Part shown: piece by piece, positions 9,898-53,830 of the stretch
Position numbering within the stretch: position 1 is the first letter of the stretch
Layout of the letters: every line of letters begins with the position of its first letter
Assembly (NCBI GenBank): GCA_964371245.1
Contig: CAYJKP010000002.1
Coordinates: 102,960 to 166,959, forward strand
Reading direction: 5' to 3'
Source: an uncultured Gammaproteobacteria bacterium
GTDB taxonomy: Bacteria; Patescibacteriota; Patescibacteriia; JAHIZJ01
Length of the DNA: 64,000 nucleotides
Translations under genes and position numbers: made by a program
The notes under the pieces: generated by a model
Told to the model about the DNA's origin: nothing
Database searches by the model: none
The model's input: the letters and a program-made list of their open reading frames with translations, nothing else

Positions 9898-10075
9898 TCT
9901 CCTTTAAATTAAGAGTTAAGCGGCGTAACTAATTGTTTATAGTACGTGAATTTTATTAACTTGTCAAATAGATTTTTCTCCACAGTCCGCCTGTTTGCCA
10001 AACCCTCAGCTCACTTTCAGCTTTCGTATAAAAAAATAACAAAAAATGAGCCCGCATTAACATTTTTTGTTTGAG

Positions 10076-10609
10076 TTACTTTTTACGATACTTACGTATG
10101 ACGATAACAATTGCCGCCGCGCCGAGTAACGGCCAGACGATCATGAAAATGGTAAGATACAGCGTGCTCTTTTTTTGCAGGCCATTACCCTCCTGTTCAG
10201 GGTGCGCCAGATACTCATAATATCGGTCAAGGACTTCCTGGGGTGAATCGCAACGCACGGCTTGGCACTGAATGATTGTGTTCTCAATCTCGCTTGTGAT
10301 GGCGGCGCTATACCCGACATATACGTTTTTTCCGGCAAAGACGGTCGGCGTCTGTCGACTCGGCATCTGATAGAGTGTCAGTAGATCTTCAAAAATTGCC
10401 CGGTTATCTGAATCTGTGCTCACGTCAAAGGTCGCTAAAATGATACCATATTTATTTTTGAAGCCGGACAGCGTATCGTCCATCGATTGGCAGCTCGGGC
10501 AACCGCTTTCATAGAAATAAAATACTTCCACCGTTTCTTTCGCCTGGGCGGGTCGAACTGAGAGTGCCGCCGCCACGACGATGAGACTGATGAGTAGGTA
10601 TTTCTTCAT
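10076..10609 (-). CDS. Exported thioredoxin-like CxxC protein with a C-terminal TM anchor
   Basis: 177 aa. Signal peptide MKKYLLISLIVVAAALSVRPAQA, CPSC motif (VFYFYESGCPSCQ), C-terminal TM LYLTIFMIVWPLLGAAAIVIVI followed by RKYRKK. Confidence 0.55.
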   Translation of the reverse strand: MKKYLLISLIVVAAALSVRPAQAKETVEVFYFYESGCPSCQSMDDTLSGFKNKYGIILATFDVSTDSDNRAIFEDLLTLYQMPSRQTPTVFAGKNVYVGYSAAITSEIENTIIQCQAVRCDSPQEVLDRYYEYLAHPEQEGNGLQKKSTLYLTIFMIVWPLLGAAAIVIVIRKYRKK

Positions 10610-10610
10610 C

Positions 10611-12290
10611 TTAAAAACGGACTACTTGTTTAGGTTGCAGTGGATGCGTCTGGTCGTTCCGGCGAGGCGGTTGCGTTGGCTGAGGCCTCGGTCGCTGGTT
10701 ATTGTTCGGCTTATTCTTGGGACGTTGGTTCGGTGCGGGTGGCGGACCGGGACGTTTCATTTGCTTAAACAATACCGGCTCTTGCTTGAGCGCCGTCTGC
10801 AAGCTGATCGCCTGTGGGACCGCCGGCCCGTCTTCGACAATTTGAACGCCCGTTTCTTCGTCAGCATCGTTGCTGGCCAGATTTATTCTCACCCGTTGAT
10901 GATCACCGTTTGGTCTCGGCTGGACGTCGTTCCGCGGTCGACTGTTGGCTGGGGTCGTCTCGTTCTGGTCTTCATCATCGTCGCCGTTCTCGGTCGGTTC
11001 AATGCCGGCCCAACGGGATATTTTTTCCTCAACCACTTGGCGGGCGGTTGAATACCGTTCCCGGGAAACCTTGATAATTTTTTCATGAGTCTCTTCTGCC
11101 TCGGCCGTATAGAGCGGTGGCAGCCCTCGGGCGGAAAACGGCTCCGAGGCAACGCCATCAATCATGAGCTTGAGATACATTTCAAACTTGGTCAGATTAA
11201 CAAGATCGTTTTGCATGAAAACAGGCTCGAACTCCTTTTCGAGAAACTCAGCGTCAGCGGCGCCCACCCGGAAACAGACTAAGGTACCGACGTTCCCGAA
11301 AACCGCCGCCTGAACCGTTTCATCAAGCTGCTCAATATATTGATGGGCAATAATCAGATCAAGCCGATATTTTCGGGCTTCGGACAGGATATTCGCAAAG
11401 CTTTCCGTGGCAAAATTCTGAAACTCATCGACGTACAGAAAGAAATCGCGGCGCTCTAATTCCGGCATATCGACCCGACTCATCGCGGCGAGCTGGAGTT
11501 TTGTGATCATCATCGCGCCAAGCAAGGCCGCATTATCCTCGCCAATCCGTCCTTTTGACAGATTCAGCAAGAGGATTTTCCCGCTGTCCATAATATCGCG
11601 CATGTCAATCGAGCTTTTTGTTTGACCGACAATATTTCGGATGATCGAGCTCGATAAAAATTGCCCGACTTTGTTCTGGATCGGAGAAATCGCCTCGGTC
11701 CGAAATTGATTGCTATAAGCGGCATATTCATCAAGCCAAAACGCCTTGAGGATCGGATCGGTTAGGCGGGTGACAACTTTTTTTCGGTATTTGTTATCGA
11801 CGAGCAGACGAGTGATGCCGAGCAGAGTTGAGCCGGGGTACTCAAGCAACGATAAAACCGTGTTACGGAGTACATACTCCAACCGCGGGCCCCAGGAGTC
11901 CGCCCAGATTTTTTTGAAAACGCCCACCAATCCCGAGGCCACGAGGTGTCGGTGAACGGGATTCACGGATTCCAGGACGTTAAAGGCGATCGGATAATCA
12001 ATATCAGCCGGATTGAAATAGATCACGTCGTTCGTTCGATTAGCCGGAATAAAATCAAGGAGTTTTTCGACCAGGTCGCCGTGCGGATCCACGACCGCGA
12101 GCCCGTGACCGGCCTGGATGTCGGAAACGATCATGTTCTCGAGCAGCGTCGTTTTTCCCATTCCGGTTTTTCCGATGACATACATGTGCCGGCGCCGATC
12201 ATCCAGTTTAATGCCAAAACGCCGTTTTTGATTACGGAAGTTTGTTTCTCCAAAAAGGGTAATATAGTTTTTTGGCTCGGGCATTGTCAT
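10611..12290 (-). CDS. TrwB/TraD/VirD4-like P-loop ATPase (type IV coupling-protein family) with no obvious TM segment and a Pro/Gln-rich C-terminal tail
   Basis: 559 aa. Walker A plus family motif HMYVIGKTGMGKTTLLENMI...LAVVDPHGDL (TrwB has ...GATGTGKS...IVDPNGD). Walker B FFLYVDEFQNF. LIIAHQYIEQL Q-motif. Low-complexity PPAPNQRPKNKPNNNQRPRPQPTQPP tail. Confidence 0.55.
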   Translation of the reverse strand: MTMPEPKNYITLFGETNFRNQKRRFGIKLDDRRRHMYVIGKTGMGKTTLLENMIVSDIQAGHGLAVVDPHGDLVEKLLDFIPANRTNDVIYFNPADIDYPIAFNVLESVNPVHRHLVASGLVGVFKKIWADSWGPRLEYVLRNTVLSLLEYPGSTLLGITRLLVDNKYRKKVVTRLTDPILKAFWLDEYAAYSNQFRTEAISPIQNKVGQFLSSSIIRNIVGQTKSSIDMRDIMDSGKILLLNLSKGRIGEDNAALLGAMMITKLQLAAMSRVDMPELERRDFFLYVDEFQNFATESFANILSEARKYRLDLIIAHQYIEQLDETVQAAVFGNVGTLVCFRVGAADAEFLEKEFEPVFMQNDLVNLTKFEMYLKLMIDGVASEPFSARGLPPLYTAEAEETHEKIIKVSRERYSTARQVVEEKISRWAGIEPTENGDDDEDQNETTPANSRPRNDVQPRPNGDHQRVRINLASNDADEETGVQIVEDGPAVPQAISLQTALKQEPVLFKQMKRPGPPPAPNQRPKNKPNNNQRPRPQPTQPPRRNDQTHPLQPKQVVRF

Positions 12291-43073: not shown

Positions 43074-44447
43074 TTGGCTATTATTTCACGATTAAGGCCA
43101 AAGGCCATTAGCATTTACCTCAAAAAATACAGTCTTACCGCCCTCCGCCAGATCATGCGCGGACTTTCTTATTTATTCAAAGGTTTGGCTCGGATGCTCA
43201 ACCTGGTAATGATTCGACCGATTCGAGTTATTGGCCGCGTCCTCCTCCGCTCCGTCCTTCCGCGCATTTACCTGACTGTTTATTTTCCGATTAAGCGGCG
43301 ATTGATTGAGCGGTTTGCCTTTGCTAAAAGCAAAATTTGGTATCCATTTGCATCGAAATATATCCTGCATTTCTTTCTCCTCGTCATGGCCGGCGGCGTT
43401 TTAGCGCATAGCATAAAAACTCGCGCGGTTTCAGCCGAAGAATTTGGCTCGGATAGTTTGATCAGCCAGTTTATCGGCTTGGATAATCAGATCATCGAAG
43501 AAACTGCCAACGCGACGCCGACGACATCAATGAGCTATCTGAATCAAAAAGGGCTTGTCGGCGGCTCGAACCTTGAAACGCAGGGACCGGCTCCGGATGA
43601 GAGCGAGAACCTCAATCTCTCCCTGGCTCAAGGCGGCAGCTCGATTGTCAAACCGAATATACCAACCACGGAAATCACCGACCAGCCGCGCGAGCTAGTG
43701 GACTATTACGTCGTCCAGGGCGGTGACACGGTCAGTACGATTGCCGATCAATTTAACGTCTCCACGAACACTATTCTCTGGGAAAACCGGCTGGGCGCCA
43801 AGGATTATATTAAACCTGGCGATAAGCTGACTATTCTTCCGACCAGCGGCGTTTCGCATCAGATCAAAAAGGGCGACACCATTGCCAGTATCGCGAAAAA
43901 ATATGGCGTTGAAACCCAGGCGATCATTGATTACAACCAACTCGCCTCCGCCGATGCCATCCAAGTCGATCAAATATTGATCGTGCCGGGCGGCATCGCG
44001 CCGGAAACCATCGCGCCGGCGGCGCCGGCTACTGGCCTCGGTCGCTATGTTAGTGGTGGAACGCCTCCGCCCCCGGCCCGGGTCCCAGCCTCGCAAAAAA
44101 TGCTCTGGCCGACCGGCAGCCACCGCATTAACCAGTACTTTGGTTTTCGTCATACTGGTCTCGATATTGATGGGAATATCGGCTCGCCTATTTATGCCGC
44201 CGAGGGTGGTCGCGTCGAAGTTGTCGGCTGGGGAAAAGGGTACGGTCTGCATGTCATTATTAACCATGGCGGTGGCAAAAAGACGCTCTACGGGCATTTC
44301 AGCAAGGCATACGTAAATTCCGGCCAGCAGGTAAACAAAGGCGACTCAATCGGTCTCATGGGTTGCACCGGCTGGTGCACTGGCCCGCATCTCCACTTTG
44401 AGGTCATCGTCAACGGGAAAAAGATCAATCCGCTGTCATATCTCTAA
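43074..44447 (+). CDS. LysM-domain M23-family peptidoglycan endopeptidase
   Basis: 457 aa. N-terminal TM. Two LysM repeats (YYVVQGGDTVSTIADQFNVSTNTILWENRL and HQIKKGDTIASIAKKYGVETQAIIDYNQL). M23 motifs HTGLDIDGNIGSPIYAAEGG...GLHVIINHGGG...HLHFE. Confidence 0.85.
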   Translation: MAIISRLRPKAISIYLKKYSLTALRQIMRGLSYLFKGLARMLNLVMIRPIRVIGRVLLRSVLPRIYLTVYFPIKRRLIERFAFAKSKIWYPFASKYILHFFLLVMAGGVLAHSIKTRAVSAEEFGSDSLISQFIGLDNQIIEETANATPTTSMSYLNQKGLVGGSNLETQGPAPDESENLNLSLAQGGSSIVKPNIPTTEITDQPRELVDYYVVQGGDTVSTIADQFNVSTNTILWENRLGAKDYIKPGDKLTILPTSGVSHQIKKGDTIASIAKKYGVETQAIIDYNQLASADAIQVDQILIVPGGIAPETIAPAAPATGLGRYVSGGTPPPPARVPASQKMLWPTGSHRINQYFGFRHTGLDIDGNIGSPIYAAEGGRVEVVGWGKGYGLHVIINHGGGKKTLYGHFSKAYVNSGQQVNKGDSIGLMGCTGWCTGPHLHFEVIVNGKKINPLSYL

Positions 44448-44816
44448 ATCAACATATTCCGAGATTCTATAAGGCGGTCGAATGACCGCCTTTTTTGTTG
44501 ATAACTGCATTGACAGCCTTATAATATGATGAAATAATATATCCGGATGGGAGTTCTGCCTGCAGACTTCCGGACAGGGCAACTGACGCCTTCGCATGGA
44601 CCGACCTCCTCTGGTGTATCCGACTGACCGGCATGGTCGCCTTCCTGAAAGGAGGAAGCGAATGCACAAAGTCGCTGTGCGGTAGGTAGAGGGGCCAACC
44701 CATTGCTGCGCCATGGCTCCGTGGTAATGTGGTGAGCCCGCTCGGACCTGATCGTTCAACCTGAGCCTGGATCGTGTCTCTGTACCACAACCACCCCGAA
44801 CGGGAGGAAAGGTACG

Positions 44817-44957
44817 ATGCCCAAGAACCACAGGTCGGCGCCCGGATGTGGGCCGCCGATGTTCGCGCAGGTTCTGTCGAAGATGAAGGCCACGACCAAG
44901 GTCGCCAAGAAGAACGCCGGCACGATCGCCGCCGAGATGGAGGAGACCGGGAGCTAG
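44817..44957 (+). CDS. Candidate 46-codon small ORF with a strong RBS inside the GC-rich 44460-45060 segment
   Basis: gggaggaaaggtacgATG..., MPKNHRSAPGCGPPMFAQVLSKMKATTKVAKKNAGTIAAEMEETGS*, followed by a T-run terminator-like sequence near 45030-45052. Composition is anomalous. Could be a ncRNA instead. Confidence 0.2.
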   Translation: MPKNHRSAPGCGPPMFAQVLSKMKATTKVAKKNAGTIAAEMEETGS

Positions 44958-45225
44958 CGCGTCACCTGCGCCGACCCGGTACGTTCGAACACCCCGCCAT
45001 GGGCGGGAACCAGGGCGCGCGTGATCTACCCAGATCCGCCGCCCGTTTTATTTTTTTAGGTCAAGTGAAGAATTTTAGAAATCATCCCCGACGTGACCGG
45101 GGATCAGAAAGAAGAACATCAGTTGTCACGTTGCGGGACTACAATAATTATTACTTCTGAATTTTGAATTCAGCAGTTTATTAATATACCAAAATTATTG
45201 CTTTCCCTAGCCTATATTGCCCACA

Positions 45226-45254
45226 TTGACAGGAATCCGCGGCCGTGATAGACT
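45226..45254 (+). promoter_or_regulatory. Candidate sigma70 promoter for the RRM-protein gene (TTGACA - 17 nt - TAGACT)
   Basis: ccacaTTGACAggaatccgcggccgtgaTAGACTgacc, about 95 nt upstream of the ATG at 45350. Confidence 0.4.
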
Positions 45255-45349
45255 GACCGCGCTTATCGTTTTGGGACAATCTAATGGTAACATTAGAGGA
45301 TAAAGGTCTCCCGAAATTAGAGAGCGCTCTAATTAAGTGAACAGTACAA

Positions 45350-45685
45350 ATGGCAAAAAAACTGTACGTCGGAGGTTTATCCTACGATGTTACCGACGCC
45401 CAGCTGAACGAGTTCTTCGCTCAAGCCGGGACCGTTGAGTCCGCTTCTGTGATCATCGACCGAATGACCGGCCGCTCGCGCGGTTTCGGCTTCGTCGAGA
45501 TGGCCTCGGATGAGGACGCGAAAAAAGCGGTCGAAACCCTGAACGGTCAGGAATTCGCCGGACGGACCATTACCGTCAATGAAGCCCGACCCATGGCTGA
45601 TCGCCCCCGCGGCGGTGGCGGTGGCGGCGGTTTCGGTGGCGGACGCGGTGGACGCGGTGGCTTCCAGCAACGACGCGACTACTAA
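45350..45685 (+). CDS. RRM-domain RNA-binding protein with a Gly/Arg-rich tail
   Basis: 111 aa. RNP-2 LYVGGL and RNP-1 RGFGFVEM. C-terminal RPRGGGGGGGFGGGRGGRGG. Confidence 0.85.
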   Translation: MAKKLYVGGLSYDVTDAQLNEFFAQAGTVESASVIIDRMTGRSRGFGFVEMASDEDAKKAVETLNGQEFAGRTITVNEARPMADRPRGGGGGGGFGGGRGGRGGFQQRRDY

Positions 45686-45812: not shown

Positions 45813-46679
45813 TCATTCCATCACCCGGTACTGTAATGCCTCCGCCACCTGATGTATTTGAATCGTATTACTGCCCTCAAGATCGGCAATCGTCCGGCTG
45901 ACTTTCAGCAGGCGCGAGTATGACCGCGCCGAGAGCTGCAACCGAGTCATGGCCGAGCGGAGGAGGTCACCGGTTTTACTATCCAATACACAATGCCGCG
46001 CGATCTCCCGACTGTCCATTTCCGAGTTCGCATATTTCGACTGGCCAGGAAAACGTTGACGCTGGATCAGCCGTGCCGCAATAACGCGTTGACGGATCGT
46101 TTCGGAATTCTCCGCCGGCTGCCGCGATGTCAATTCATCATACTTTACCCGTGGTACAGGAAGGTGGAGATCGATCCGGTCGAGTAAAGGACCAGATATT
46201 TTTTTTCGATAGTATGAAACTTGTTGCGTTGAACAGGTGCAAGCCTTTTCTTTATCACCAAAAAAACCGCACGGGCAGGGATTTTGGGCGGCCACGAGGA
46301 TAAATCGCGCCGGAAAACGCAGGCTGCCGTGCACCCGACTGACATGGATGACGCCGTCCTCAAGCGGTTGGCGCAGACTCTCGAGAACCACCCGGGGGAA
46401 TTCCGGCAGTTCGTCGAGAAACAACACGCCTCGATGGGCCAATGAGATTTCGCCGGGCCGGGGAATCCGTCCGCCGCCGATCAGCGAGGCGGCTGAGGCG
46501 GTATGGTGCGGCGAACGGAATGGCCGTTGCCAGATCATCGGCCGTTCCGGTGCGATCAAACCGGCGATGCTGTAAATCTGGGTGACCTCGACCGATTCTT
46601 CCAGCTCAAGCTCAGGCAAGATCGAAATGAGGGCTTTGGCCAAAAGGGTCTTCCCTGAACCGGGCGGTCCGGAAAAAAG
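45813..46679 (-). pseudogene. comM: comM (YifB/Mg-chelatase-like AAA ATPase), C-terminal part of a gene split by element insertion
   Basis: The frame reads back to LFSGPPGSGKTLLAKALISILPELE (Walker A) at 46679, then ...FLDELPEFPRVVLESLRQPLEDG...NPCPCGFFGD...LLDRIDLHL. Upstream of 46679 the reading frame enters AT-rich foreign DNA and meets a stop. Confidence 0.75.
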
Positions 46680-48244
46680 GAAGTTGTGGACGCAGTACTA
46701 CCTGTACTCTGCTTATCCTCTGTGTTAACGGGGATTGCTCCCAATATATCAATCTGATTATGTCCAAACTCTATCTTTCTTACTAGGCTCTGAAGAATAA
46801 ACTGCTTTTCATCAAATGTAGTATTATTCAGTCTTTTTGAGACATGTTTACAGTAATATTTAATTCCCCTGGAGATAATACTATAAGTAGGATTGTTCTG
46901 TTGTGTTTGGCATGTGTTTTTTTGTTCATTAAGTCGTTTAATGTTTTCTTTAATATTCACCATTTTATCCTTCAATTGATTTAGCTCAACTGCCCCCTCA
47001 CTGTATGCGTCCAACAAACGCTTCTCCTTTTGTTGCTCATTATTAATATCTTTATCTAAGCGTGTTATTTCATTACTGGTTTCCTGAATAGATAGAATAT
47101 TAGTATTTTTTATTCTCTTTACCTGACTCATTATTATATTTGGGTTTATTAATGCCTCACAGACAGTTCCCCAAACTAATGGCTCAAGTATATGCGTACT
47201 GACCATGCTAGCACTACATGTTCTGGGTAACGGAAAATTACGGTGGCGATTACCACATCTGTAAAACGTCTTGTCGTGAACCGGAGTACCATAATATGGC
47301 GATCCACAATCCTTACAAACAACTAAGCCCCTAAGTAAATAGTGGTTCTTTATATTCCTTGGAGACAACTTAACGTTTTCTTTTAATTGTTTTTGAGCTC
47401 GGTCAAAAACGTCCTGTCCAATTATTGACGGCACACTAATGGGTATCCACTCTGATTTATTCCTCAGTTTTCTGCCAGTCCTAACACTCCGTTTATATTT
47501 AACGTTAGTCGGAGACTCAATAGACGCATATTTGTTATAATAGGTTATCCCTGTATATGTGTTATTTCTAATTATTCTAGCCACGCTACTTTTCGCCCAT
47601 TTTCCCTTGCCCCCTCTAGGTTGAATGTTCTCTTGTGTTAATTTTTTAGTAATACCTCGAATACTAAGTCTGTCATCAGTAAACCATTTATAAATTAATC
47701 TAACTACCTTGGCTTCTGTTTCAAGTATTTTGTAATAGCCGTTACGTTTTTCGTTTTTCTTAACATATGTGTATCCATATGGCGGTAAACTTCCAACAAT
47801 ATCGCCCCTTCTGGCCTTTGCTAATCTGCCCCTACGCGTTCTCTCCAATATTTTTCCTTTTTCGTATTCGGCGATTAACCCCTGGAAACCAAGCAATAGT
47901 TGATCCTCTGGATTATCACCAATTTCTCTATTAAAAAATAGTAGTTTTACTTTGTTCTTCTCAAGCTCCTCTTTGATTAAATACTGGTATGCGTAATTTC
48001 TCGCCAATCGATCAGGGGAATGAATTAATGCACCCTCAAAAAGATTCTTTTTAGCGTCATCTCTTAGCCTATCCATGCCTGGCCTAGCCATTATTTCACC
48101 GCTCCAGCCGTCATCAATATATTCATCAATAACTGTATGGTTGTTTTTTTTGGCATACTCTTTCAAAGCATCTACCTGTGATCTAATGGTTTTTTGTTGT
48201 TCTTGCCTCTCAGTCGAAACGCGAGCATAAATCGCAATTTTCAT
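46556..48244 (-). CDS. Large serine recombinase (integrase) of the element; its ORF reads across the left junction into host DNA
   Basis: 562 aa. N-terminal resolvase catalytic domain MKIAIYARVSTERQEQQ (Ser nucleophile). Recombinase domain. Cys-rich zinc-ribbon CKDCGSPYYG...CGNRHRNFPLPRTC. Coiled-coil. The last ~40 codons are GC-rich host sequence in an alternative frame of comM. Confidence 0.85.
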   Translation of the reverse strand: MKIAIYARVSTERQEQQKTIRSQVDALKEYAKKNNHTVIDEYIDDGWSGEIMARPGMDRLRDDAKKNLFEGALIHSPDRLARNYAYQYLIKEELEKNKVKLLFFNREIGDNPEDQLLLGFQGLIAEYEKGKILERTRRGRLAKARRGDIVGSLPPYGYTYVKKNEKRNGYYKILETEAKVVRLIYKWFTDDRLSIRGITKKLTQENIQPRGGKGKWAKSSVARIIRNNTYTGITYYNKYASIESPTNVKYKRSVRTGRKLRNKSEWIPISVPSIIGQDVFDRAQKQLKENVKLSPRNIKNHYLLRGLVVCKDCGSPYYGTPVHDKTFYRCGNRHRNFPLPRTCSASMVSTHILEPLVWGTVCEALINPNIIMSQVKRIKNTNILSIQETSNEITRLDKDINNEQQKEKRLLDAYSEGAVELNQLKDKMVNIKENIKRLNEQKNTCQTQQNNPTYSIISRGIKYYCKHVSKRLNNTTFDEKQFILQSLVRKIEFGHNQIDILGAIPVNTEDKQSTGSTASTTSFFPDRPVQGRPFWPKPSFRSCLSLSWKNRSRSPRFTASPV

Positions 48245-48351
48245 ATTTATTGTCTAAATTATTGGTTATGTTAGAATACAAAAGCAGTAATCTGCACCAA
48301 AGACTTCTTGTTTAGCGATGGGGAGTCTTTTGGTATATTGTTTCGCTTTCT

Positions 48352-48756
48352 TTACTGTGGGTATCTTTTAAAACATTCATCTTTCGATTCTTTACGAAAA
48401 CTTTCAATATGATTTGCGGTTGCTGAAGGAAGGCTACAGTCGTCCTTTAATTTTCTTGATTCACATTCTGTCTTCCATTGCGCCAAATAGCTTTCATCTG
48501 CTGACTGTAGACATACATTTAATAATCTTGTGTTCAATGATTCTTTTGATTTTTCATCCTCTATTTTTTTTTGTTCTGACGACCATTTGTCTCTCTCAAA
48601 GTCTAATTTCGCTTTCTCTTTTTGCGGTATAAAAATCACAAAGTAGTAAAATATTGACCCGGCGACAATTAATATACCTAATACAATGGCGATTGTAATA
48701 ATTTTTTTATGATATTTATGTCTATTTTCTTGTTCGTTGATTAATTGCTCTTCCAT
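48352..48756 (-). CDS. Element-encoded small membrane protein (hypothetical)
   Basis: 134 aa. TM helix KIITIAIVLGILIVAGSIFYYFVIFI. Charged C-terminus. Confidence 0.4.
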   Translation of the reverse strand: MEEQLINEQENRHKYHKKIITIAIVLGILIVAGSIFYYFVIFIPQKEKAKLDFERDKWSSEQKKIEDEKSKESLNTRLLNVCLQSADESYLAQWKTECESRKLKDDCSLPSATANHIESFRKESKDECFKRYPQ

Positions 48757-48768
48757 AAATTATAAAAG

Positions 48769-48933
48769 TTAATTGTTAGTCTTGTTTAATAATTTATAAA
48801 TATTTTTTTCACTAATTCTCCAATGCCCAATCTTAGAAGCTTTTATTTTACCAGATTTAATATAACGAAAAATCGTTCGTTCACTTACTCTTAATATAGC
48901 GGCTACTTCTTTGATCGTTAGTAGTCTGTCCAT
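48769..48933 (-). CDS. Excisionase/Xis-like HTH DNA-binding protein (54 aa)
   Basis: Hand translation: MDRLLTIKEVAAILRVSERTIFRYIKSGKIKASKIGHWRISEKNIYKLLNKTNN. Typical excisionase-family HTH. Sits next to the recombinase gene. Confidence 0.55.
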   Translation of the reverse strand: MDRLLTIKEVAAILRVSERTIFRYIKSGKIKASKIGHWRISEKNIYKLLNKTNN

Positions 48934-49075
48934 ATAAACATAGTGTAAAACGATATATTTCTATTGTCAAGTATTGTCATGCTTTGTCATTCTATTGACT
49001 TGTTGGGCTTACGGGCGTATGTTTGGGTTGCAAGAGTTCCTTGATTAAACGCTAATTGTCTAATTAATCCTGTAT

Positions 49076-49861
49076 ATGAAAGAAAAATCAATTATTCATT
49101 TCTTGATTCTCGGAATGTTCTCCATTATTGTTGGTGGTGGAATTCTTTGGTATGCATCACAATTCAAGACTGATTCTTCTACCATAGGAATTATTCATAA
49201 TATTCCAAAAGTATTAGGCGAAGAAACAAAAAATATTAATGTTCCGGCAGTAAATACTAATGAACCTATTGTAGAAGAAAAAGCTGCATCTCAACCAGTT
49301 GCTTCAACAGGAATGTCATCTAGCGAAGTAAGTGGACTATTTTTGACTTATTATAATCGCGGCGCTAGCCAAGATGAACTTAATTGGTGGTCGGGGCGAA
49401 ATAAATCAGAACTAGAGTCTAACTTAAAGAGCCATCCACTAACTAAAGACAATAATCAATCCCAACAAACTGCTACAAATACTAATACCAACTCAACACC
49501 TACTACAAATACCAACGCCACGCCCACACCGACTCCTACTGTTGACCCTGCGATAAAAATCGAGCTCTGTAAGTCCGAAGCGGATACAGCTAAGATAGCC
49601 GCAAAAACAACATGCACTAACTCTGCGATGGAAGCGTTTCGTGCAGACCCCAATAACGTCATGGCCCTGAAAGAATCGTCGAAGTGCAACACCAAATATT
49701 CCGACATCTTTGATCCCAGTGCAAGAAATTCCTTAATAAATCAATGCGTAAGCATGTATACTCAAGTAATGAGCGACATAAAATCCGGCTACCTGACCAA
49801 GATACCTGCATGCACAGATGCGGTCTATCAAAATACCTATACTGAATGTTTGAATAAGTAA
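49076..49861 (+). CDS. Element-encoded secreted protein with a Thr/Asn-rich linker and a Cys-containing C-terminal domain (hypothetical)
   Basis: 261 aa. N-terminal TM/signal IIHFLILGMFSIIVGGGILWYA. Linker QQTATNTNTNSTPTTNTNATPTPTPTV. C-terminal domain with 6 Cys. Confidence 0.5.
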   Translation: MKEKSIIHFLILGMFSIIVGGGILWYASQFKTDSSTIGIIHNIPKVLGEETKNINVPAVNTNEPIVEEKAASQPVASTGMSSSEVSGLFLTYYNRGASQDELNWWSGRNKSELESNLKSHPLTKDNNQSQQTATNTNTNSTPTTNTNATPTPTPTVDPAIKIELCKSEADTAKIAAKTTCTNSAMEAFRADPNNVMALKESSKCNTKYSDIFDPSARNSLINQCVSMYTQVMSDIKSGYLTKIPACTDAVYQNTYTECLNK

Positions 49862-50086
49862 CACCATTTGAGCATAAGAATACTTTTTCATAGTACTAGA
49901 CAACTGGTATTTTTTACTTTATTTAATCAACCTCTTTTAAGTAGTAACAAAATCACTTAACTCTCTTTATATGATTCGTAAAATCATAATCAAGTCTCTT
50001 GAGTAATCCATAGTTACTATATACCCCATAGTTACCTACTTAATAGAACAGATACTATATAGTTACTAGAGTACTATATTAGGGTA

Positions 50087-50380
50087 TTACGTCTGTAAGC
50101 TTTCTTTGAAGACCTGATTATTGAATTCTTCGACTATCTTCGTTTCTAATTCTTTCCATAGTTCGGGGTTTTCGCAATAATAGTAGAATTCCCATTTTTT
50201 GTTATCCTTTTGTTTTCTGGGTGGATAAACAAAATAGTTACCATCTAATTTACGAAGATGTACGGTGAAACCTTTTATCCTGTGAACGTCATCAATAATG
50301 ATGTTGGCGATAGCCAGTGTTGAGCTACCCGGTTTTTTAGTTTTAACGCTGACTTTGATGTTTGATGTATCAATACTCAT
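50087..50380 (-). CDS. SpoVG-like protein
   Basis: 97 aa. ...KVSVKTKKPGSSTLAIANIIIDDVHRIKGFTVHLRKLDGNYFVYPPRKQKDNKKWEFYYYCENPELWKELETKIVEEF follows the SpoVG pattern (..AiAsitlD.efvvhdirvi.g.nGlFVamPsrk...g.frdi.hpin...r..i...vl.ey). Confidence 0.4.
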   Translation of the reverse strand: MSIDTSNIKVSVKTKKPGSSTLAIANIIIDDVHRIKGFTVHLRKLDGNYFVYPPRKQKDNKKWEFYYYCENPELWKELETKIVEEFNNQVFKESLQT

Positions 50381-50451
50381 TTTCGATAAATTATTTTGTT
50401 AGAGGACAATTTTTAGTGCTCACAGACACAAATAGGGGGGTCAAAACGGGG

Positions 50452-50661
50452 TCATAACAAAAGCTGACGTCTTAGGATGTCCTTGATTATCTGTTCTTTT
50501 TCAGAAGGGTCATAATCGTCCCTTGAGACACACTTGTTGAAGTGTTTACGGATCAGCCTCGGTTTGTCGGTATTATTCAATGACTGCCAAAATGCAGGTA
50601 CATCACCAACAAGTGGGTTTTTTCTTTTAATTGCCTTGAATCGTGTTGATATTGATTTCAT
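50452..50661 (-). CDS. Element-encoded hypothetical protein (69 aa)
   Basis: ORF only; no motifs. Confidence 0.25.
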   Translation of the reverse strand: MKSISTRFKAIKRKNPLVGDVPAFWQSLNNTDKPRLIRKHFNKCVSRDDYDPSEKEQIIKDILRRQLLL

Positions 50662-51250
50662 GGTTTTTGTGAGTTATTCATCTTGATTTTAATTATTGTT
50701 ATGTCGTATTTTCTTCTCAATTTCATAAATATCTTTTAGCAGTAAATCAAACACAATGTTTAAACTATTATTCTGTAATTCGTTTTTTTCTTGTATGATT
50801 GTTATTTTGTAAAGATTTGTTTTTTCCATATAAAAAGAGCTAACCAATTTAGCTCCTCACGGGTATGCGCGAAGATTTAATAATTTATTTATTACAAATC
50901 ATAAATTATTGGTCAAGCTTCTAAGCAGCACAGCCTATGAACATGTTATTAACAATTTACGTAATATATTAACAAAACTGGAGTAATTTCCAGTTTATTG
51001 TTTATATATTAATCGAGTAATTTGATGGTATATCCCTACTATTTTGTACCAATCGCAGTACGTATACTGTTTTAGTCAAGACGAGTGTAATATGTGCCAG
51101 TTATCGGTTACACCGAAGTATGCAAATTGTAATGGCCTTTTTGTGATATATGGTTTGAGAGTCATAAAATTACTACGACCCCAAACTACACCCCACCCCT
51201 CTATGTCCCCTCGTTGTATTTGGTTAAATAAATGTTTATTCCAGAGCTTT

Positions 51251-52255
51251 CTACCCGCCTGGGCAAATGCTCTCACATGGCACACCATCTTTATCATTAT
51301 CTCTAATTGAACAACCACAATTATTCAACTGATAATATGCCTCCTCGCAGGTGGATATTTGCGTGCAAGTCTTCTTGCAGTCGCATGTATATTTTGACGT
51401 ATTAGTATCTGTGGCTGTGTTTGTATTTGTAACAACGTTTGTGTTGGTAGTTGTGTTCGTATTTACGACTGTATTGATATTTGCTGCTGTGTTAGTACTT
51501 GTCTGTGTTGTGGGTATTTCCGTAGAACCATTGCAAGTATTATCCGCCCATAATCCCTTCTTGCCTTCACGAGCCCGAGTTTCTAGAGTTTTATATTCCT
51601 CCGTCTTTGAAGTCGGATACTTCAAATAGGCATACGCGTACCCTTCCCGAATCATCGTTGCTCCAATGTCTTCATTTTCTAAGTATATATACCGCAACAA
51701 CCTGCCGTACTTATCTCTATCCCCTTGGCTAGCATCCACTAATAGTATTACCTTTTTACCATTAACCAACTCTTTCATTTTATCAGACGCTTCCTTGCCA
51801 AAACACTGAACCGCTTTTCTAGGATCAACTGTCTCTGGAGTATCAATTCCGAGAATACGTATCTTGTTTCCATCAGATAATTTTACTGTGTCCCCATCAA
51901 CCACGCTTGAAATAATTGCTTCCGAACCAACCGGATTTGTTATACTTGAATTACTCGACGATACAACTGTATAGTTTGAGGGGATTGTTACGTCCTCTTG
52001 TTTTATATCTACTACAGAATCATCTGCGGTCTTATCATCGTCATATTCTACCAGTGAAGGTATAGTGATTGTTTTTGTGACTTCTGAATTGACGTTATTA
52101 TTTGTATTGTTTTGCGGCTGATTTGAATTTGTTTTATTGCTACTACTAATTGACGCAATTCCAATTATAAATAATATAAAGCCACCTATAATCCAAAGCC
52201 ATTTTTTACTTTTCTTTTTTGGTTTTTGTTCTTGATCTGTCTGTTGATTGTCCAT
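51251..52255 (-). CDS. Membrane-anchored secreted thermonuclease (staphylococcal nuclease/SNase family) with a Thr/Asn-rich linker and a Cys-rich C-terminal module
   Basis: 334 aa. TM WLWIIGGFILFIIGIASI. SNase core VVDGDTVKLSDGNKIRILGIDTPET...GRLLRYIYLENEDIGATMIREGYAYAYLKYP. T/N-rich stretch. C-terminus CDCKKTCTQISTCEEAYYQLNNCGCS...CESICPGG. Confidence 0.7.
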   Translation of the reverse strand: MDNQQTDQEQKPKKKSKKWLWIIGGFILFIIGIASISSSNKTNSNQPQNNTNNNVNSEVTKTITIPSLVEYDDDKTADDSVVDIKQEDVTIPSNYTVVSSSNSSITNPVGSEAIISSVVDGDTVKLSDGNKIRILGIDTPETVDPRKAVQCFGKEASDKMKELVNGKKVILLVDASQGDRDKYGRLLRYIYLENEDIGATMIREGYAYAYLKYPTSKTEEYKTLETRAREGKKGLWADNTCNGSTEIPTTQTSTNTAANINTVVNTNTTTNTNVVTNTNTATDTNTSKYTCDCKKTCTQISTCEEAYYQLNNCGCSIRDNDKDGVPCESICPGG

Positions 52256-52270
52256 AAATGTATTGATTAT

Positions 52271-52462
52271 TTAAGTACCAAAATGCCTCCCACACAATGT
52301 TGTGCAACCTTGGGCTTTAATGTCGGGCATGTCTTTAAGACATTGAATCCGGCAAGCCTCAAATTCTGTCTTTTGGCTTGGCCTTAAAACAAGATAATAT
52401 GCAACCGATAACGCAACAAGCCAAATTCCAAATACGATGCTGATTTTTAGAAACTTGCTCAT
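52271..52462 (-). CDS. Element-encoded small membrane protein (63 aa, 4 Cys)
   Basis: TM ISIVFGIWLVALSVAYYLVL, then CRIQC...C..LC. Confidence 0.3.
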   Translation of the reverse strand: MSKFLKISIVFGIWLVALSVAYYLVLRPSQKTEFEACRIQCLKDMPDIKAQGCTTLCGRHFGT

Positions 52463-52523
52463 AACATTGTTAGTTAATTTTTAATAATATATCGATCTAA
52501 TCTCGTCAATAATATATATGATC

Positions 52524-52982
52524 CTATTTATTTGCTTGTTTTTTAGTTGTATATTTTTCAGCCATCTCAATAATGTAGGAATTGTAACTACCGCTATTCC
52601 ATAAATCTTTATTAAACCAAGCCCAAATTTTAATTTTTTTCATCAGAATATTCTTAATCTCTTCTATTTCTTGATTTGTTGGTATCGTTATATTTTGTTT
52701 ATTGTTCTTTTCTTTGTAGTAATAAATATAGCCATCAATGAGTTCTTGTCTCGCACGAACAAATCCGGAATGTTGAGCATATACCAATAAGATAAGTGAC
52801 AGAAAATATACAACAATTAATATAACCCACCAATTTCCATCAGCCTGTAGCTTTGAAATACCATCATCAATTACTCGGAAAATAGTAATGATTAGTAAAC
52901 CAACAAAAGCAACAATTGGAACATAAGCTAGGGCAATTAGCATATTTTCCCACAAATTTCTTTTCCTAAACGTAATAAGCAC
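52524..52982 (-). CDS. Element-encoded membrane protein (152 aa, hypothetical)
   Basis: Two TM helices. AT-rich codon usage like the rest of the element. Confidence 0.35.
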   Translation of the reverse strand: MLITFRKRNLWENMLIALAYVPIVAFVGLLIITIFRVIDDGISKLQADGNWWVILIVVYFLSLILLVYAQHSGFVRARQELIDGYIYYYKEKNNKQNITIPTNQEIEEIKNILMKKIKIWAWFNKDLWNSGSYNSYIIEMAEKYTTKKQANK

Positions 52983-53134
52983 TTTTGTTGATTTTCACTT
53001 AATGCCCTGTATTGAAGTTATATGCCCAGGCCATACCCCCCCCTATATACGCCCCCTCTTTGTATATATAGTTAAATTATACCCTCTTTGGCATCTTTTT
53101 GACCAACCGAAACTCAATGCTTGTTGTACTGTGT

Positions 53135-53830
53135 CTATAATTTAAGCAGGTTATGCCCGCCGGCGGCGGCAATCTCAAGCGCCCGTTTTGCCTGTTCTTG
53201 TCCTTTTATCTGGGAAAAATTAACTGGATATTCAAAGCATTCCCGCCTCGACGCGGTCTGGGTAAACACGGTTAGCGGCGTCGTTCCCTCCAGATGGGCA
53301 ATGAGCGTGTTGAGCGACTGAACCGGATAAATTTCGAGACCGGGAATGATGGCTGCTTCAGCTGCGTTCGCCGCTGGTAAAAATATTTTCCGTAGGCCGT
53401 GGCGTTTGGCTGCCTGCATAATTGAGAGCATCCCCGTAACTGGCCGGAGACGTCCTTCTAAAGAAAGCTCACCGATAAACAGCGCATTGTGGTTGGCCGG
53501 CTGGATTTGGCGCGAGGCCATCAGGATGCTGACCGCGATCGGTAAATCAAACCCTGGTCCTTCTTTTTTCATATCGGCCGGTGCCAGATTCACCGTCACG
53601 CGCGTCGTCGGAAAACGAACGGCGCTGTTTTTTATCGATGAACGAACCCGTTCGCGCGCTTCTTGGACGGCGAGATCCGGCAATCCGACGATGAAAAATT
53701 TTGGCAGACCCGAGGCGATATCCGCCTCGACCTCGACTAATTCGGCCTCGAGGCCGACCACGGCCGCTGATAACACTTTTCCAGGCATAGAAAAACAGGC
53801 TCGTCTCGCCTGCCATTTAAAACCTACCAT
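53135..53830 (-). pseudogene. comM: comM, N-terminal part (ChlI-like N-domain up to just before the P-loop), truncated by the element
   Basis: 231 aa ending ...FSQIKGQEQAKRALEIAAAGGHNLLKL*. In intact ComM/YifB this segment is immediately followed by the GPPGxGKT Walker A motif, which is found at 46679. Confidence 0.75.

Follow-up and report, generated by a model that had tools for sequence, protein, structure and literature searches.

The disruption of comM by mobile genetic elements (MGEs) is textbook knowledge. Homologues of Mg-chelatase/ATP-dependent protease are the most enriched target of large serine recombinases (LSRs), being hit by 12.4% of predicted site-specific LSRs, and competence genes are likewise enriched among LSR targets (Durrant et al. 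2022, PMC10083194). In phage WO, the sr1WO LSRs integrate into the Mg-chelatase gene of Wolbachia (PMC9203015). In V. cholerae and A. baylyi, ComM is known to act in the recombination of transforming DNA (cited in PMC11472951), and its knock-out by MGEs lowers transformation with heterologous DNA (PMC11472951; PMC12378983). Moreover, MGEs both disrupt comM and encode DNases that block transformation (PMC12378983; PMC11472951), the rationale being that elements disrupting comM gain by lower recombination (PMC11472951; PMC12378983). The present analysis concerns a 64-kb stretch of contig CAYJKP010000002.1, the whole of which is referred to as the window. In it, the comM (yifB) gene of a Patescibacteria genome is interrupted by a foreign integrative island of 6,467 bp with a low guanine-plus-cytosine (GC) content, which very probably entered the gene via LSR site-specific recombination.

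With the LSR elements catalogued by Durrant et al., this island shares the recombinase family, the target gene family, an insertion within coding sequence and an attP adjoining the integrase gene (int), and in that set, too, many distantly related LSR clusters converge on the Mg-chelatase/ComM gene. The catalogued elements come from isolate genomes, whereas the present one is a very small non-phage element with a distinct backbone in uncultured Patescibacteria. Phage WO likewise places an LSR element in a host Mg-chelatase gene, with the gene halves on both sides, and its attachment (att) sites were also defined via an uninterrupted homologue, but WO is a full tailed prophage of tens of kb with structural and eukaryotic-association modules, while the island has 6.5 kb and no virion genes. 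SCCmec-type cassettes of staphylococci (staphylococcal cassette chromosome, SCC; recombinases CcrA/CcrB/CcrC) resemble the island in combining an LSR, small regulators and a set of cargo genes, in having no transfer or replication functions of their own, and in using a conserved housekeeping target. SCC inserts at the 3' end of rlmH (orfX), and rlmH stays active; the island, in contrast, splits its target at the Walker A motif, and its LSR is not a Ccr equivalog.

In Listeria A118/phi10403S in comK and B. subtilis SPbeta/skin, an LSR insertion also interrupts a competence or developmental gene that precise excision restores, and the A118 and SPbeta integrases are similar to the present LSR in sequence and structure; however, those elements are prophages or large remnants with demonstrated regulated excision, whereas the island is without phage genes and its excision is only predicted. 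The AbaR/AbGRI (Tn7-like) islands and other MGEs in comM of A. baumannii, Pasteurellaceae and Vibrio have in common with it the target gene and the knock-out of the ComM helicase, but they differ in Tn7-type transposition, in the site used within the gene, and in their resistance or defence cargo. Finally, transformation-blocking DNases of MGEs, namely IdeA of the integrative and conjugative element (ICE) VchInd5, SxnA of SXT and Dns of C. jejuni CJIE1, offer a parallel for an integrative element with an exported nuclease, although these enzymes belong to other nuclease families and their anti-transformation effect was shown experimentally, whereas the role of the SNase protein encoded here is predicted and may be nutrition or other. 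The preliminary description of the window had supposed that a serine-integrase element in comM would be novel; this does not hold, because Mg-chelatase/ComM is already the top LSR target (12.4%, PMC10083194), a phage WO LSR (PMC9203015) and comM-disrupting MGEs are known, and at least 28 relatives of the LSR (36-56% identity) sit at the same comM codons.

The split comM gene and its empty site

The same description had proposed that an AT-rich element of about 6.5 kb with a large serine recombinase splits comM in frame in a reduced-genome, episymbiont-like host, that imperfect repeats at its ends represent attL and attR around a crossover, and that the recombinase reading frame crosses a junction, so that its C-terminus depends on the integration state. 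These structural points stood up to the analysis almost throughout, and the host is a Patescibacteria lineage.

In the window as it stands, comM is a split gene. The N-terminal half (53830..53138, minus strand, stop to 53135) has 231 codons and matches Pfam ChlI (E=9.5e-46), Lon_C and positions 2-26 of the Mg_chelatase profile; it is host-derived up to the CT at 53146-53145, the final two codons (KL) and the stop at 53137-53135 being supplied by the element. The C-terminal half (46677..45813, minus strand), which runs from the Walker A motif GPPGSGKT onward, matches Mg_chelatase positions 26-206 (E=3.3e-79) and Mg_chelatase_C. As the Mg_chelatase match breaks at position 26/26, the two halves are exactly contiguous in the profile, and the ComM/YifB domain set (ChlI/Lon-like N-domain, Walker A AAA+ Mg_chelatase, Mg_chelatase_C) is contiguous only after in-silico removal of the element. 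No in-frame start codon lies upstream of Walker A in the C-terminal half, so that ComM is inactivated by the insertion, and precise excision would, from the computed frames, bring comM back in frame.

A search with the rejoined protein (...GGHNLL+FSGPPG...) retrieved intact 502/516-aa ComM at 93% identity, namely P0001 and P0241. In pairwise alignment with P0241 (NCBI MFA5107255.1, annotated by NCBI as YifB family ATPase, from GCA_041650335.1, 'Patescibacteria group bacterium'), 516/516 residues of the rejoined sequence are matched with 0 gaps; the N-terminal half taken by itself shows 93% identity to P0241 and 100% identity in loci L002 and L003. A sister-genome locus with a 93%-identical ComM, L001, provides the syntenic empty site: it aligns to the window from 59783 to 53144 and then resumes from 46688 to 45812, the two alignment segments overlapping by 12 nt, which correspond to the imperfect junction repeat. 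Synteny extends to both sides of the sister comM, with Peptidase_A8, two hypothetical genes, comM, an RRM protein and LysM-M23 in this order.

The 6,467 bp between the comM halves have a GC content of 0.351 against 0.520 in the remaining window. Equal-sized windows outside the element range from 0.495 to 0.547 (standard deviation 0.014), which places the element about 12 standard deviations lower; GC falls from about 0.52-0.55 to 0.30-0.40 between the comM pieces, and no other low-GC block of this kind occurs within the 64 kb. The element is of foreign, low-GC origin, and its un-ameliorated composition (0.35 vs 0.52) points to recent acquisition. In one set of ENA assemblies, 16 contigs encode the identical LSR; each of them shows 99.8-100% nucleotide identity to the window and has the element integrated at the same place. 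The same junctions, 100% identical, recur in independent assemblies, among them contigs of 918 kb and 1.18 Mb, and the split is therefore not an assembly artefact.

A G8 homopolymer inside the element (about 53040-53047) coincides with contig ends in L004 (1-27) and L006 (1-52). Both contigs start with long poly-C/G artefact sequence at this run, which could be mistaken for an element boundary, and population polymorphism or excision was therefore rejected as an explanation of these ends.

Attachment sites and crossover

The junction repeats CATAACCTGCTT and CACAACTTCCTT were confirmed at the two element ends. The attL-type junction on the comM 5' side (53120..53170, minus strand), read directly and compared with the empty site of L001, consists of the host B arm ...GGGCATAACCTG, the crossover dinucleotide CT at 53146-53145 and, on the element side, the P' arm TAAATTATA (53144-53136) followed by GACACAGTA (53135-53127); its P' arm is resembled by that of L008, a complete relative of the island. 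The attR-type junction on the comM 3' side (46650..46700, minus strand), established in the same two ways, is made up of the P arm TACTGCGTC (46697-46689), the spacer CACAACTTC (46688-46680), the crossover CT at 46679-46678 and the host sequence TTTTTCCGGACCGCC. In minus-strand reading, attL is ...GGGCATAACCTG-CT-TAAATTATAGACACAGTAC... and attR is ...GTACTGCGTCCACAACTTC-CT-TTTTTCCGGACCGCC..., whereas the empty site of the sister genome is ...GGGCACAACCTC-CT-TTTTTCCGGACCACC....

The attP reconstructed from these junctions is GTACTGCGTC-CACAACTTC-CT-TAAATTATA-GACACAGTAC, the arms of which form inverted TACTGYGTC in a symmetric 9+2+9 nt geometry centred on CT. As synthetic joined junctions, attB has ...GGGCATAACCTGCT directly followed by TTTTTCCGGACCGCC..., and attP has ...GTACTGCGTCCACAACTTCCT directly followed by TAAATTATAGACACAGTAC.... 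The core common to attP and attB is CTT only. In L008, just TT is common to element and target at the equivalent position, and the crossover in the window is thereby narrowed to the first two bases (CT) of CTT. Short sites, imperfect inverted arms, a non-palindromic central dinucleotide and the absence of a long target duplication are all as in att sites of the LSR type, which measure about 40-50 bp.

The arm consensus ATTGCGTCCAcAAC is kept in 17 relatives. These are in the same orientation as the island, and across them the consensus takes the form GGt.atATTGCGTCCAcAAC.Tc[C/T]T, with CT or TT in the central column in all. In nine further relatives the element is inverted, and the junctions are compatible with crossover at the equivalent host position; in L009, the inverted case worked out explicitly, the LSR-sense dinucleotide AG corresponds to the same host CT of the Leu codon. 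Insertion in either orientation at the same host dinucleotide is expected if the central dinucleotide sets the orientation of serine integrases.

The large serine recombinase

The LSR gene (46556..48244, minus strand) encodes 562 aa as integrated, and Pfam searches matched all three domains of the family: Resolvase (PF00239, E=3.4e-31, residues 3-148), Recombinase (PF07508, E=2.3e-20) and Zn_ribbon_recom (PF13408, E=2.6e-11). In an alignment of 30 homologues, the catalytic S10 (within YARVST) and R8 are invariant, as are C310, C313 and C343 of the zinc ribbon, with C330 nearly so. An AlphaFold2 model (mean pLDDT 78) contains a coiled coil at 368-449 inside the zinc-ribbon domain, its long helices (368-415 and 421-449) lying between zinc-ribbon strands, and a disordered tail at 510-562. 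The top full-length Foldseek matches of the model are the SPbeta, Bxb1, PhiC31 and A118 integrases (E down to 1e-24), which agrees with sequence similarity to TP901-1 (catalytic domain, E=9.3e-17), SPbeta and A118. The best NCBIfam similarity is to CcrB (E=1.4e-39), far under the equivalog cut-off, and the best PHROG is the integrase family phrog_95. Being full length with its catalytic residues intact, the enzyme may well still be active.

Only codons 1-522 of the LSR are encoded by the element, while codons 523-562 (40 codons) are an out-of-frame read of the comM Walker A region across attR. In the excised form, the reading frame would instead run for 22 codons into the opposite element end, with a predicted product of 544 aa. 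Alignments of homologues end at about residue 505-522; because the tail is unconserved and predicted to be disordered, its change seems to be a side effect of the overlap between attP and the 3' end of int, although it may have a regulatory effect. Archaeal 'suicidal' tyrosine integrases are a known case of an attP within int (PMC8371274).

Other genes of the element

All reading frames of the element are open, and all except one lie on the minus strand. At the end near attL, a promoter-like site (TGGTCA-18-TATAAT, 53076..53105, minus strand; a consensus match only, 10/12) points inward towards a gene for a 152-aa multi-pass membrane protein (52524..52982, minus strand), for which no Pfam, PHROG, PADLOC or NCBIfam match was found and no relatives in related LSR loci. 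Scanned for repeats, promoters and terminators, the element showed nothing above chance except the repeats in the linker codons and a small number of good -10/-35 matches. The next gene (52271..52462, minus strand) encodes a 63-aa membrane-anchored protein with four Cys and no match in Pfam and PHROG scans.

A 334-aa membrane-anchored protein (51251..52255, minus strand) combines an N-terminal transmembrane anchor, a linker, an SNase domain (PF00565, E=1.3e-27), a Thr/Asn linker and a Cys-rich domain resembling Excalibur (borderline, 21.8 bits vs a cut-off of 22). Aligned to the S. aureus nuclease, it keeps the DGDT, R..DTPE and YGR motifs, so that its catalytic site appears intact; it also matches phage nuclease PHROGs and the PADLOC candidate model 'SNc+LTD', beyond which defence annotation of the cargo reading frames gave nothing. 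The preliminary description rightly listed an SNase nuclease but counted two further Thr/Asn-linker, Cys-rich proteins: only two element proteins have such linkers, the SNase protein being one and the other a 261-aa secreted or anchored protein (49076..49861) with a Thr/Asn/Pro linker, a Cys-rich C-terminal domain and no significant family match, which is the product of the element's only plus-strand gene. The repeats at 49474-49516 in this gene and 51419-51461 in the SNase gene are 72% complementary over 43 nt, with the genes on opposite strands, and the two linkers therefore seem to share related low-complexity codon repeats.

Between these two genes, a doubtful 52-aa reading frame (50689..50847, minus strand), gene-called in some assemblies, has no homologues in related LSR loci. 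It is followed by p69 (50452..50661, minus strand), a 69-aa basic protein and candidate regulator or recombination directionality factor (RDF), which has 72% identity to a homologue in L171; homologues occur in seven loci on the same strand, 0.4-2 kb upstream of the LSR, and a search of a large protein database returned only three proteins, none annotated. A 97-aa SpoVG-like protein (50087..50380, minus strand) scores 22.3 bits with Pfam SpoVG, under the threshold of 29.6, but when 10 element-borne homologues are combined in a profile, the SpoVG structures 2ia9 (E=2.3e-8), 2i9z and 2i9x are matched over 85 residues (E=2e-8 to 4e-7), and this full-length match places it in the SpoVG family. The resemblance to SpoVG had been recognized earlier, though as cargo; since the gene recurs with the LSR in 14 related loci, it is probably part of the backbone.

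Nearer the LSR, a 54-aa DNA-binding protein of the HTH_17/excisionase family (48769..48933, minus strand) matches Pfam HTH_17 (E=7.2e-15), PHROG excisionase families and TIGR01764 (excise). Its proposed excisionase-like nature was thus supported, but it does not directly adjoin the LSR gene as had been described: a 134-aa single-pass membrane protein with a Cys-containing C-terminal part (48352..48756, minus strand), without significant family match in Pfam and NCBIfam, lies between them. From their conserved linkage to the LSR, HTH_17 or p69 is a candidate RDF or regulator.

Relatives of the island

In GTDB genomes, IMG/VR and JGI metagenomes, 240 loci encoding LSR relatives were gathered. 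In 26 of them (36-54% LSR identity), together with L088 and L089, the LSR adjoins a comM fragment broken at residues 226-233. Among loci with adequate flank, adjacency to comM was found for 8/64 from GTDB, 18/51 from JGI metagenomes and 0/21 from IMG/VR. The hosts include Omnitrophota (Ca. Susulua and others), Patescibacteria/Parcubacteria and one gammaproteobacterial metagenome-assembled genome (MAG). The closest other LSR, P0122 (56% identity), also reads into the C-terminal half of comM, with an HTH_17 gene ahead of it.

Recurring partners were found by iterative profile search over the reading frames of these loci. Upstream of the LSR and on the same strand, an HTH_17 gene is present in 44 loci, usually abutting int, a SpoVG-like gene in 14, SNase in 11 and p69 in 7. 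By gene content, the backbone of the island would comprise p69, the SpoVG-like gene, HTH_17 and the LSR, with SNase and the small secreted or membrane proteins as cargo. At least five comM-targeting islands contain an SNase homologue (the window, L008, L019, L021 and L173); this amounts to at least 5 of about 17 comM-targeting relatives for which at least 5 kb of the element are available, compared with 6 among the roughly 190 other LSR loci, a comparison between loci that share ancestry. The complete relative L008, from Omnitrophota (Ca. Susulua), is 10.5 kb long and encodes an Imm_superinfect-HNH protein, zinc-ribbon membrane proteins and SNase, and phage genes were not found in it. The first of these proteins (L008, 1205-1882), in which a superinfection-immunity membrane domain is fused to an HNH endonuclease, is a second nuclease-type cargo beside SNase.

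Other members of the clade occupy other places. LSR relatives with 38-44% identity occur at other comM positions in L024 (11550-12965), L216 (11550-12965), L202 (1796-1918) and L227 (11572-12141), the comM match beginning at residue ~42, directly after the LSR, in the first three, and at residue ~327 in L227; members of the clade thus seem to use several sites in comM. In the IMG/VR viral contig L090 (IMGVR_UViG_3300049640_001177), a 45%-identical LSR at 10001-11554 adjoins an antisense N-terminal RadC fragment (UPF0758_N, E=2e-29) that ends after the HhH region; judged by this fragment, L090 would be an insertion in radC, another competence-regulon gene and the one identifiable target among the LSR relatives outside comM. 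Relatives with 32-51% identity are binned in archaeal MAGs, namely L018, L020, L034 and L059 (Thermoproteota, Archaeoglobaceae, an uncultured archaeon and Thermoplasmata), and in L020 a p69 homologue (2413-2646) lies shortly before the LSR. These archaeal relatives represent either cross-domain spread or misbinning.

Integration, present-day mobility and alternative explanations

The proposed course of events is as follows. In the circular form of the island, attP would overlap the 3' end of the int reading frame. LSR dimers would bind attP and attB, the latter lying in the codons GGHNLL/FSGPPG just before and into the Walker A motif, and cutting at the central CT, rotation and religation would generate attL and attR and duplicate nothing but the shared core. 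The insertion has parted Walker A and the rest of the AAA+ helicase from the N-terminal domain and so inactivated ComM. Transfer from cell to cell would proceed via an external route (transduction, transformation of the circle or vesicles), as for SCC cassettes. Loss of ComM would benefit the island by lowering the recombination able to delete it, and the exported nuclease could add to this anti-recombination effect or feed a nucleotide-scavenging host.

Several observations weigh against an island that is mobile at present and acts in this manner. All assembled copies of the strain are occupied. An exact search for the attP junction in JGI metagenome contigs and IMG/VR found none, no same-strain intact ComM was present in a collection of 15 billion proteins, and the 90%-identity cluster of intact ComM consists of only the two 93%-identical sister sequences. 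With the nearest LSR relative only 56% identical, no second host of the same element is known. For the directionality factor there are only the candidates HTH_17 and p69, and the fitness role that we infer for ComM loss and the nuclease has to be set against the fact that MGEs commonly carry SNase homologues, which may serve other roles.

Some of these points would also suit an immobilised relic, in which an island integrated by its LSR has lost the ability to excise, perhaps because it lacks a working directionality factor or because the enzyme is hampered by its host-derived tail of 40 residues, and comM is permanently off. The occupied state of 16/16 contigs with the LSR, the missing intact ComM of the strain, the failure to find the attP junction and the failure of Pfam and PHROGs scans to find transfer machinery all favour it. 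On the other hand, the LSR frame is full length with invariant catalytic residues, both att arms still fit the family consensus, the un-ameliorated GC speaks for recent acquisition, every reading frame is open, and the read-through tail is common to relatives and predicted to be disordered. A relic is accordingly regarded as possible but unlikely.

Gene-interrupting LSR elements are known as switches. A programmed regulatory switch, like Listeria phi10403S in comK or B. subtilis skin/SPbeta, would excise conditionally and restore ComM, with subsequent reintegration or loss in a terminal cell. The exact in-frame comM regenerated upon excision would serve such a system well, as would the small HTH_17 gene that is conserved and coupled to the LSR across the clade, but mixed occupied and empty populations were not seen, and the occurrence of both orientations and many phyla among the relatives fits selfish targeting of a conserved sequence better. 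This makes a switch improbable.

A defective prophage or a phage satellite packaged by a helper phage is more doubtful still, and has little to recommend it beyond the affinities of single genes: the LSR falls in phrog_95, the HTH protein in phage excisionase families and the SNase in phage nuclease PHROGs, and more distant LSR relatives are present in IMG/VR viral contigs. No capsid, terminase, portal, tail, lysis, primase or replication genes were found in the 6.5-kb island or in the 10.5-kb L008, none of the 21 IMG/VR loci with adequate flank adjoins comM, and the cargo consists mostly of membrane or secreted proteins. In the island itself, searches of Pfam, PHROGs, PADLOC and NCBIfam found no capsid, terminase, tail, lysis, replication, relaxase or secretion genes; virion structural, packaging and lysis genes are absent from the 10 reading frames by Pfam and PHROGs. 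A length of 6.5 kb is too short for a tailed phage. The island does not qualify as an ICE or an integrative and mobilizable element either, as no relaxase, type IV secretion system or coupling-protein family was detected with Pfam and NCBIfam, oriT being beyond the reach of these scans.

Lastly, a chimera of assembly or binning, by which a low-GC contig of another organism was misjoined into a Patescibacteria contig, would explain the sharp GC discontinuity but is effectively refuted by identical junctions in many independent assemblies with contigs of 0.9-1.2 Mb, and by the position of both junctions at one comM codon with LSR-type att arms that are kept in relatives. Site-specific integration of a foreign island by its own LSR remains the preferred explanation.

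Flanking regions of the window

Between the RRM-protein gene and the LysM-M23 gene, the sister genomes carry urocanase (hutU) and about 2 kb (8035-10015 in L001 and 6204-7841 in L170), whereas the window has only 166 nt (45053-45219). A sub-threshold tRNA-like match lies at 45142-45199 on the minus strand (21.4 bits against a gathering score of 29), and the interval may represent the scar of an indel at a tRNA-like site. A stretch of about 600 nt (44436-45053), situated downstream of LysM-M23, is poor in reading frames, has a GC of about 0.57-0.59 and is ~90% conserved in the sister genome; it gave no Rfam match above threshold, the best being L20_leader (20.7 bits, E=0.26). In the window as a whole and in the ORF-poor region (44300-45400; ORF, open reading frame), Rfam scans found only two tRNA-Met genes above the gathering level, the remaining matches being sub-threshold. 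These genes (CAT anticodon) lie on the plus strand at 1974-2049 and 2140-2216, spaced 90 nt apart.

Significance

In a full-text literature search, no paper was found that links Patescibacteria with serine recombinases in this way, and to our knowledge the mobile elements of this phylum are little characterised. No new mechanism is shown here, since comM is on record as the target that LSRs hit most often, and the additions are modest and mildly new: the host phylum, a very small non-phage island with a recurring backbone, and an extracellular SNase that recurs in comM-targeting islands. It could further be conjectured, with considerable reserve, that the island belongs to a cross-phylum family of minimal non-phage LSR cassettes acting as two-hit anti-transformation parasites, which split ComM and also export an SNase destroying incoming DNA. 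If this rather unlikely proposal were true, both hits would shield the cassette from curing by recombination, and the cassettes would circulate in Patescibacteria and Omnitrophota, as ultra-small or symbiotic lineages, and in some further MAGs. For hosts of this type, the uptake of DNA is believed to be central to nutrition.

The island is a fully delimited mobile element in Patescibacteria, with exact attL and attR, reconstructed attP and attB and an empty site in a sister genome. Its LSR/att pair, with at least 17 natural att variants, is a potential integration tool for bacteria of the candidate phyla radiation (CPR). The island also extends the conflict between mobile elements and natural transformation to lineages that are believed to be dependent on DNA uptake.

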